Below are positions 15,858 through 25,389 of a DNA stretch of 64,000 nucleotides, piece by piece. A program made the position numbers and the translations under genes. Within the stretch, counting starts at the first letter, position 1. The number at the start of each line of letters is the position of its first letter. The stretch comes from a bacterium (GTDB lineage Bacteria > UBA8248). Location of the stretch: positions 1,472,001 through 1,536,000 of the forward strand of contig OZ241996.1 of assembly GCA_965204535.1 (NCBI GenBank). Reading direction: 5' to 3'. The notes below the pieces were generated by a model. It saw only the letters and a list, made by a program, of their open reading frames with translations. It searched no databases and had not been told where the DNA came from.

Positions 15858-16279
15858 GGCCGCTCCCCGCTTTTATCAAGAAACAGGATGTGCAATGCGT
15901 CGAAGGCGCGAAGGTAGTCTTTTCTGATCTCTTCGATGACGGCTTCGAACCTTTTGAGGTCATAATTGTGCGACATCTTGTTGCGCGCATCGAGTGCGTC
16001 CATCCACGTTTGTCCATCCCCCAGCAGATTCGCTTCGAAGGCTTTCCGTATGACGGCTCTGGGCGTTACCTGCTCAAAAGCGACATTCTCACTCTCCAGA
16101 TAGTCCTTCATGAGGTTCCAGGCAAGTTCGGTCGTATATTCAAACCGCTGGATGATCCCTTCTTTTTCAAGCTGGCTCGGTTCCCTTTCGTCCATCATTT
16201 CGATGGCCTCGCGCAGCAGGGAAAATGCGCGCTTGTAATTCTCGAATCGGTATCGCCAGCGCGGGGTGTCGTCGTTCAC
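15854..16279 (-). CDS. HEPN-domain protein (HI0074-like nucleotidyltransferase partner), putative RNase toxin
   Basis: RW.YRF.NY..A, GIIQRFEYT.ELAW..MKD and ARNKMSHNY (R-X4-H). Confidence 0.88.
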   Translation of the reverse strand: MNDDTPRWRYRFENYKRAFSLLREAIEMMDEREPSQLEKEGIIQRFEYTTELAWNLMKDYLESENVAFEQVTPRAVIRKAFEANLLGDGQTWMDALDARNKMSHNYDLKRFEAVIEEIRKDYLRAFDALHILFLDKSGERP

Positions 16280-24676: not shown

Positions 24677-25333
24677 CTAGTCCGCGACAGGAAGCTCGCC
24701 GGACGGGCGGCCGGGCAATTCGCCGGTCTCCAGGATGCTGTCGATGACGTATCTGTATTGTTCCGCAGGCACCGCGCCGACCATCACCGCTTTGTCGTTC
24801 ACGACGACGGAGGGAATGCCAGTGATCCCCAAATTCGTGGCCTCCATGTATTCCTTGGCGGCCTTTTCCTTCAAACCCCCGCTCTCGAGAGCGTCGCGGT
24901 ATCTGTCCATGTCCAGCCCGCTTTCCTCGGCCACGTCGCTCACCACTTCCGGGTCCGAGATGTTGCGGTTATCCGTGAAGAAGGCGGCCAGAAGGTTGTC
25001 GTGGAATTTCTCCCACTCCTCAGACCCCTGGAATCTCGCCGCCAGCCCGGCTTCCGCAGACGGCATCGAGCAGTTCGGAAACGCCTCCTCGCTCTCCCAC
25101 GGGGTGAAATCGCCGGAATCGGGCTGTGAGTTCGCATTATTCCAGTGGTTTCTGCGGTAATCGTTGAACACCGCCGTGGGGTCGGGCTCGGGCCGAAGCA
25201 TAAATACCCTGTACTGGATGTCTACTTTATCGCCGTATTCTTCCTTAATCTTCTTCAGGCGCACGGCCGAGTTGAAGCACCAGGGTCACAAAAAATCGCT
25301 GTAAACGGTGAATCGCACAGGGGCGTTATCCAT
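24677..25333 (-). CDS. DsbA/FrnE-like thioredoxin-fold oxidoreductase, probable selenoprotein (UxxC)
   Basis: ATG at 25333 after GGAGAG gives MDNAPVRFTVYSDFL-TGA(25286-25288)-PWCF, in frame with the tracked ORF; cis-Pro loop GITGIP. Confidence 0.85.
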
Positions 25334-25389
25334 TATCTCTCTCCTTTGGCTCCGGGAGGATGCGACGGAGCCGGTTGATGAACGGCAGT

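Follow-up and report, generated by a model that had tools for sequence, protein, structure and literature searches.

Does the single in-frame TGA near the start of a DsbA-like gene in a UBA8248 bacterium end a protein or encode selenocysteine (Sec), and, if Sec, what would the enzyme do? The gene lies on the reverse strand, at 25333–24677, of the 64 000-nucleotide stretch analysed here (the window; contig OZ241996.1, positions 1,472,001 to 1,536,000). A sequence-only reading, made without database searches, had proposed a hidden selenoprotein that standard annotation would truncate. On our reading, the gene product is a selenoprotein of 218 residues with the DsbA/FrnE fold, predicted to work as a cytoplasmic disulfide reductase with Sec16 as the attacking residue, and we put the probability of this whole reading at roughly 0.63. 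Codon 16 itself is very likely read as Sec.

The reading frame and its product

A plain open reading frame finder starts the gene at a GTG (25264) and returns 195 residues in which, as had been stated, the redox motif is missing. The upstream ATG favoured by the sequence-only reading (25333) does follow a purine-rich site, the Shine-Dalgarno-like AGGAG at 25345–25341 (reverse strand) with a 7-nt spacer, and most orthologs also have a purine-rich stretch ahead of the start. From this ATG the observed frame is MDNAPVRFTVYSDFL-U-PWCFNSAVRLKK, closed by a TAG at 24679–24677, and it has the expected 218 residues and only one TGA, at 25288–25286 (reverse strand).

The product contains a DSBA-like thioredoxin domain (PF01323), matched in a Pfam scan at 85.6 bits against a cut-off of 25.6 over residues 10–197. 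A sequence search of solved structures aligned residue 16 with the leading Cys of SDIACPWC in Deinococcus radiodurans FrnE (E = 5.6e-13), which is where the TGA had been placed from motif likeness. The frame, the Pfam match, the FrnE alignment and a structural model together give an active site of U16-P-W-C19, with the TGA as predicted Sec16 in the attacking position of the CxxC and Cys19 (25279–25277, reverse strand; C in 30 of 30 loci) as the predicted resolving residue; the only other Cys is at 88. Pro174 (24814–24812, reverse strand), in G-I-T-G-I-P-S-V, occupies the position of the thioredoxin-fold cis-proline, is P in 30 of 30 loci and aligns to GITGVP of FrnE, so that its geometry is presumably cis.

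An AlphaFold model computed from a 13-sequence alignment has the DsbA fold (mean pLDDT 85.4), with the thioredoxin-fold strand beginning at residue 6; judged on this model, the 195-residue form is without the first strand and the active site. A Foldseek search with the model returned FrnE, YjbH, SCO1869 and DsbM-type chains, with TM scores of 0.73–0.78 for the top 11 and about 20% identity. By hydropathy no hydrophobic N-terminus was found, the most hydrophobic 15-mer starting at residue 176, and since the thioredoxin-fold strand already begins at residue 6, the protein is probably cytoplasmic.

Standard annotation does shorten the protein, as had been foreseen: the exact 195-residue form belongs to a public sequence cluster with 124 members, 40 of which were covered here, and all 15 of the members listed have 195 residues. 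The public records thus carry a fragment without its active site, and the present frame amounts to an annotation correction. Multi-domain DsbA repeats made up most of what a profile search of representatives returned, and the top two matches of that search were N-truncated orthologs.

Conservation of the TGA and its cysteine counterparts

Searches of 41 genomes gave 33 matches (E up to 1.3e-60) in 31 of them, each with exactly one TGA and no other stop inside. This TGA stands at codon 16 in all 30 orthologous loci that were fetched, down to about 48% identity, and the 15 codons ahead of it are conserved as protein. A wider scan of GTDB confirmed 351 relatives, and in the best 80 of these 351, a set that overlaps with the 30 loci, codon 16 was TGA in 42, TGC in 26 and TGT in 12, and nothing else. 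The pairing of TGA with Cys across orthologs is thus observed directly: Cys lies opposite the TGA in 38 of the 80 GTDB loci, as it does in FrnE. Most of the 42 TGA loci, which come from independently assembled genomes, are closely related (seven distinct 15-mers).

The nearest named relatives are Nitrospinota metagenome-assembled genomes. Cys forms come from Rokubacteria, Myxococcota, Binatia, Chloroflexota and Actinomycetota, and TGA is also found in two genomes outside the lineage. The distribution is therefore not that of a solitary TGA among TGC and TGT relatives, which would have told against the proposal; within the lineage TGA predominates, and Cys forms appear at greater distance. Nor does the TGA look like an assembly error, as contigs from four sequencing runs span codon 16 and no other letter was seen there among the matches listed (40, with 69 more beyond these). 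One run (X2) may be the source sample itself. Eleven of the 23 sequencing runs are labelled sponge metagenome, and three of these eleven were compared with the locus. One RNA library yielded a 529-base contig of a related strain that spans the TGA, although a contig cannot show transcription.

We built a quick tree of 59 rows, comprising 16 of the 42 TGA loci, all 38 Cys loci, the query and four paralogs. It groups the 15 Sec rows of the Nitrospinota lineage with weak support (82), and because its base is open and the paralog branches are long, it gives neither the direction nor the number of Sec/Cys changes. The natural Sec/Cys ortholog pairs offer a way to test what selenium adds to a FrnE-type enzyme. 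In class-level orthologs (L042, L044–L046), a Cys stands directly ahead of Sec (DYC-U-PWC) and C88 is missing.

Sec decoding in the host

The sequence-only reading implied a Sec-decoding host and called for a search for selA, selB, selC and selD, and all four were observed in the genome. The protein genes each exceed their curated cut-offs (selA 572.8, selB 389 and selD 331.5 bits), and a tRNA-SeC(tca) at C2:1945499 folds like a standard tRNA-Sec. The host selD itself carries a TGA, followed by a hairpin with a GGAG loop. TGA is the commonest stop in the genome (1065 of 2171 long open reading frames), so the code is not generally reassigned. By gene content, the host is able to decode UGA as Sec.

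selA was found in 29 of the 30 relatives with a TGA ortholog (the miss being a 79% complete genome), in both outside TGA genomes, and in 32 of 33 members of the same class. It also exceeded the cut-off in 31 of the 37 Cys-form genomes tested (a set without L106), so the presence of selA, though needed as context, does not separate Sec from Cys forms; the whole subfamily seems for this reason to occur mostly in Sec-using bacteria, which may reflect the phyla sampled.

A predicted SECIS hairpin

Downstream of the UGA we predict the upper hairpin of a SECIS element at +16 to +31 (25270–25255, reverse strand), with stem UCGGC / GCC-U-GA, loop CGUGC and a loop G at +22. This G (25264) is shared with the GTG at which gene callers begin the gene. 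The sequence-only reading had drawn a different hairpin, GGUGC/GCGCC, with a GG about 17 nt after the UGA. The GG is there, at +18/+19, but that pairing is less likely: it is the minimum free energy fold only in a 39-nt cut, and in a 45-nt context its five pairs have a probability of 0.0, against 0.90–0.93 for G18-C28, G19-C27 and C20-G26 of the hairpin at +16 to +31. From these pair probabilities, the GG probably sits in the stem, with the loop G at +22.

The published bacterial SECIS consensus has a loop of 3–9 nt with a G in its first two positions, lies 16–37 nt from the UGA, and has a stem of 4–16 bp and a minimum free energy of at most -7.5 (PMC13188914). The present hairpin falls within these bounds, with a 5-nt loop, G second, a 20-nt spacer and 5 bp with one bulge, and its energy of -7.5 (42 nt) to -11.2 (45 nt) kcal/mol does so marginally.

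A looser hairpin test let through about a third of background sites (198 of 600 ordinary TGA stops and 133 of 362 in-gene Cys codons) and also 21 of 38 Cys orthologs, so a hairpin alone is weak evidence. When G+22 was fixed in the loop, a hairpin at or near minimum energy was present in 41 of 42 TGA loci versus nine of 38 Cys loci. Constraint on the RNA past the UGA is also observed directly: among 25 family-level orthologs, seven of 68 four-fold sites are invariant, and four of those seven lie in codons 22–26, a clustering with a hypergeometric probability of 2e-4 that ignores kinship and the choice of window. The folding energy is no better than that of shuffled sequences (z from +0.77 to -0.67), and covariation counts gave two-sided changes in none of the five pairs in fixed register, and none for the GGUGC/GCGCC stem either. 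Given these null results and the background passes, the SECIS assignment leans on synonymous constraint and position, not on energy, and is to that extent a prediction. In the class-level orthologs L042 and L044–L046, two synonymous changes move the SECIS stem by one base.

Relation to known families

DsbA-like selenoproteins are not new. Nine Sargasso Sea members with a UXXC site (COG2761) were reported in 2005 (PMC1088965) and the group was listed again in 2006 (PMC1794560), and Table 1 of PMC13188914 catalogues a 'DsbA-like protein form 1' (PF01323, UxxC), there marked as predicted and not experimentally verified. Compared with that entry as given, our gene has the same Pfam domain, a UxxC site (here UPWC), an in-frame TGA with a downstream hairpin, and widespread Cys homologs. 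The assignment to form 1 (COG2761; representative NIP15863.1) is made at the level of PF01323 and UxxC. The gene is thus a further member of a selenoprotein family known since 2005 and will not surprise a specialist. In BSepDB, three of the top ten places go to UBA8248 genomes, which have 54, 50 and 48 selenoprotein genes (PMC13326102); a 67% identical TGA ortholog (L080) is linked to the 54-gene genome, and so orthologs of our gene are probably already curated there. The terms we sought gave no match in the BSepDB supplement (3,999,962 characters, possibly part of the file) or in deep-Sep (PMC12013277).

Among characterized proteins, the best sequence match of known structure is FrnE of D. 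radiodurans (DR_0659; PDB 5CNW, 5CP1), which shares the SD..CPWC and GITG.P motifs, a TM score of 0.73–0.74 and the lack of a signal peptide. It differs in having Cys where Sec is predicted here, in its C-terminal CxxxxC, which is missing from our protein, and in overall sequence (about 21% identity). Set against the FrnE subfamily (cd03024), the protein has the CxxC-type site in a DsbA-like domain without an export signal, and not the C-terminal CxxxxC. FrnE proteins are described as cytoplasmic disulfide reductases of which many, not all, carry this CxxxxC, where it helps to regenerate the active site (PMC8945050). By analogy our protein would be FrnE-like in its working, yet we do not file it as an ortholog of drFrnE. 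No NCBIfam model scored over its cut-off for the protein, and the best match, over residues 91–199, was the DsbG-like (seleno)lipoprotein model NF041057 (Rcas_1661), also a UxxC selenoprotein of the same fold; the match is weak, at 46.8 bits versus a cut-off of 190, and the lipoprotein leader is absent here.

Proposed function and its alternatives

Given Sec insertion, a role as disulfide reductase is the probable one by analogy, with the proviso that function is here transferred over a long distance, since identity to characterized enzymes is about 20%. In such a mechanism, the UGA would be decoded as Sec once SelB, carrying Sec-tRNA, has bound the +16 to +31 hairpin. The Sec16 selenolate would then attack a substrate disulfide, as the equivalent residue does in thioredoxin-fold enzymes, and Cys19 would resolve the mixed bond to leave a Se-S ring. 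Because the C-terminal CxxxxC is absent, an outside reductant, such as thioredoxin reductase or a small thiol, would be needed to recycle the enzyme. The invariant PDP..FNDYR...W segment might, as a guess, form the specificity surface.

The same selenoprotein could instead act on a small molecule or a mixed disulfide and not on protein disulfides, in the manner of DsbM, Rv2466c-like or kappa-GST/HCCA-isomerase proteins and possibly together with a hydrolase encoded next to it. We hold this to be possible though unlikely. Kappa GST (TM 0.65), DsbM (0.67) and an HCCA isomerase-like chain (0.68) are indeed among the structural matches, but higher scores went to FrnE and YjbH. In all 13 aligned orthologs the FNDYR segment is unchanged, and two paralogs have lost the second Cys; against this, all 30 loci keep a whole UxxC. 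The hydrolase would be the downstream neighbour, a peptidase family S58 gene (PF03576; 24599–23643, reverse strand), which lies at most 3 kb away in 38 of the 42 TGA loci, but this synteny belongs to one class only, the gene being near none of the 38 Cys loci and neither of the two outside TGA loci, and so may be no more than inherited gene order.

It is improbable that the selenoprotein is a redox-sensing adaptor or chaperone like YjbH, as opposed to a turnover enzyme. YjbH (PDB 6GHO, 6GHB) shares the DsbA-like fold and is the top Foldseek match (E = 4.9e-10, TM 0.77), with a sequence match at E = 3.6e-7; nevertheless FrnE is nearer by sequence, identity to YjbH is only about 20%, and our protein is some 55–80 residues shorter than the YjbH chains (274–298 aa). 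A selenoprotein candidate of the ArsC/Spx fold (L179), Spx being the partner of YjbH, does occur in the genome, but it exceeds the cut-off of an ArsC selenoprotein model and not those of the Spx models.

A periplasmic DsbA-type oxidase that forms disulfides is less credible still. The Pfam family name suggests one and DsbA chains appear among the weaker matches, but by hydropathy the N-terminus does not resemble a signal peptide, residue 6 already belongs to the motif region, and in relatives the sequence just ahead of the start contains stops or is not conserved.

Least credible of all is that the TGA really terminates the protein, marks a decayed pseudogene, stems from an assembly error or is read as another residue, with a product of 195 residues or none: public records of that length and a thermodynamically unremarkable hairpin would fit, but the same TGA recurs in 42 independently assembled genomes with no other stop in 33 ortholog matches, the codons ahead of it are kept as protein, the short form would have neither first strand nor active site, a genome in which TGA is the commonest stop has no general reassignment, and, though insertion of Cys at UGA by a special tRNA exists, the tRNA found here folds like a standard tRNA-Sec.

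Other genes in the window

Upstream of the selenoprotein gene lie a gene of the SAM hydroxide adenosyltransferase family (PF01887/PF20257) and mtaB (TIGR01579, over cut-off), together spanning 27701–25390 on the reverse strand. Neighbour synteny is confined to the lineage and indicates no clear substrate. Further along the same strand, an ArsM-like methyltransferase (18257–17508) has an all-Cys motif, YCGCG; its best NCBIfam matches include arsenite-methyltransferase selenoprotein models, all below cut-off. Two short overlapping frames at 16279–15510 (reverse strand) may be a toxin-antitoxin pair, looking like a nucleotidyltransferase with its substrate-binding partner.

The selenoproteome of the host genome

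Five of the six PF01323 matches in the genome have a TGA at the attacking position, giving the active sites UPWC, UPFC, UPYA, UPWA and UAWC. The first of these is our gene; the other four are paralogs on contig C1 (L048, L050, L051 and L052), two of them without the resolving Cys. All four have a G at +22 in a hairpin whose loop opens at +21 or +22. Three of the four genes are clustered within about 60 kb, near one DUF442 and one TlpA candidate.

A genome screen combining a coding score, a hairpin filter and a paralog search passed 80 candidates to family scans, of which 51 were accepted; with the five DsbA genes and selD this makes 57 candidate selenoprotein genes. The other 29 were rejected for having no domain or one that does not span the TGA. 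A second pass listed 65 more sites, and none of the eight new ones examined in full was accepted. By type, the 57 comprise AhpD/CMD (14), UGSC (8), DsbA (5), GrdB/PrdB-like (4), OsmC (4), Prx/TlpA (4), deiodinase-like (3), Grx (2), rhodanese (2) and DUF442-like (2) proteins, and one each of SelD, GrdA, Trx, DsrE, Rdx, ArsC, Ogt, DUF3179 and CoA-transferase. The count of 57 is a judgement, partly circular with the hairpin filter and not exhaustive, and the assembly behind it has 5.26% contamination. The figure agrees with the 48–54 given for UBA8248 genomes in BSepDB, though methods differ and the numbers are not strictly comparable, and is below the published ceiling of 63.

A more ambitious reading would make our gene the founder of a distinct UPWC/FNDYR Sec subfamily that serves a small-molecule substrate together with the adjacent S58 hydrolase. 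The five Sec-DsbA paralogs would then divide this chemistry, some using two-residue and others single-Sec sites, and the full selenoproteome of this sponge-associated lineage would pass 63 once unlisted families are counted. Taken as a whole, this combination seems to us doubtful.

Formate dehydrogenase is the commonest bacterial selenoprotein. With a PF00384 query its Sec form was not found in this very Sec-rich genome: in all nine matches the matched stretch is free of TGA. The same candidate sites turn up both on C1 (~188–220 kb) and on C2 (~2961–2970 kb and 4–33 kb), which suggests that assembly sequence is duplicated there; all 57 counted sites lie elsewhere.

The more interesting leads lie outside the window, in the five-paralog DsbA expansion and in Sec candidates of two further folds. 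The first is a CoA-transferase subunit A fold (PF01144; L184, C2:146772–147605, forward strand) with EHA-U-AS followed by a strong hairpin; each of its 20 best matches, which come from 19 genomes of the genus, has one TGA, and a paralog in the host genome has Cys at that position. The second comprises two sulfur-transferase folds like DUF442/TIGR01244 (PF04273), L161 (C2:1924214–1923732, reverse strand) and L162 (C1:709018–709563, forward strand), with VH-U-K..GRAG at the catalytic position. Matches of this type with TGA occur in 20 of 20 other genomes of the genus, and the same query found none in 13 more distant genomes. These two types, three of the 57 genes, are absent from the 119-family table of PMC13188914, and titles and abstract openings yielded no published description of a DUF442-like or CoA-transferase selenoprotein. 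Finally, an AhpD-like gene (L146; C2:2008853–2008491 and upstream, reverse strand) carries a pair of TGA codons spaced by three residues (U-Y-G-U), whereas the paralog L141 reads C-Y-G-U at the same place; as the fetched stretch began at its first TGA, it was counted by paralogy, and its sequence points to a possible double-Sec active site.
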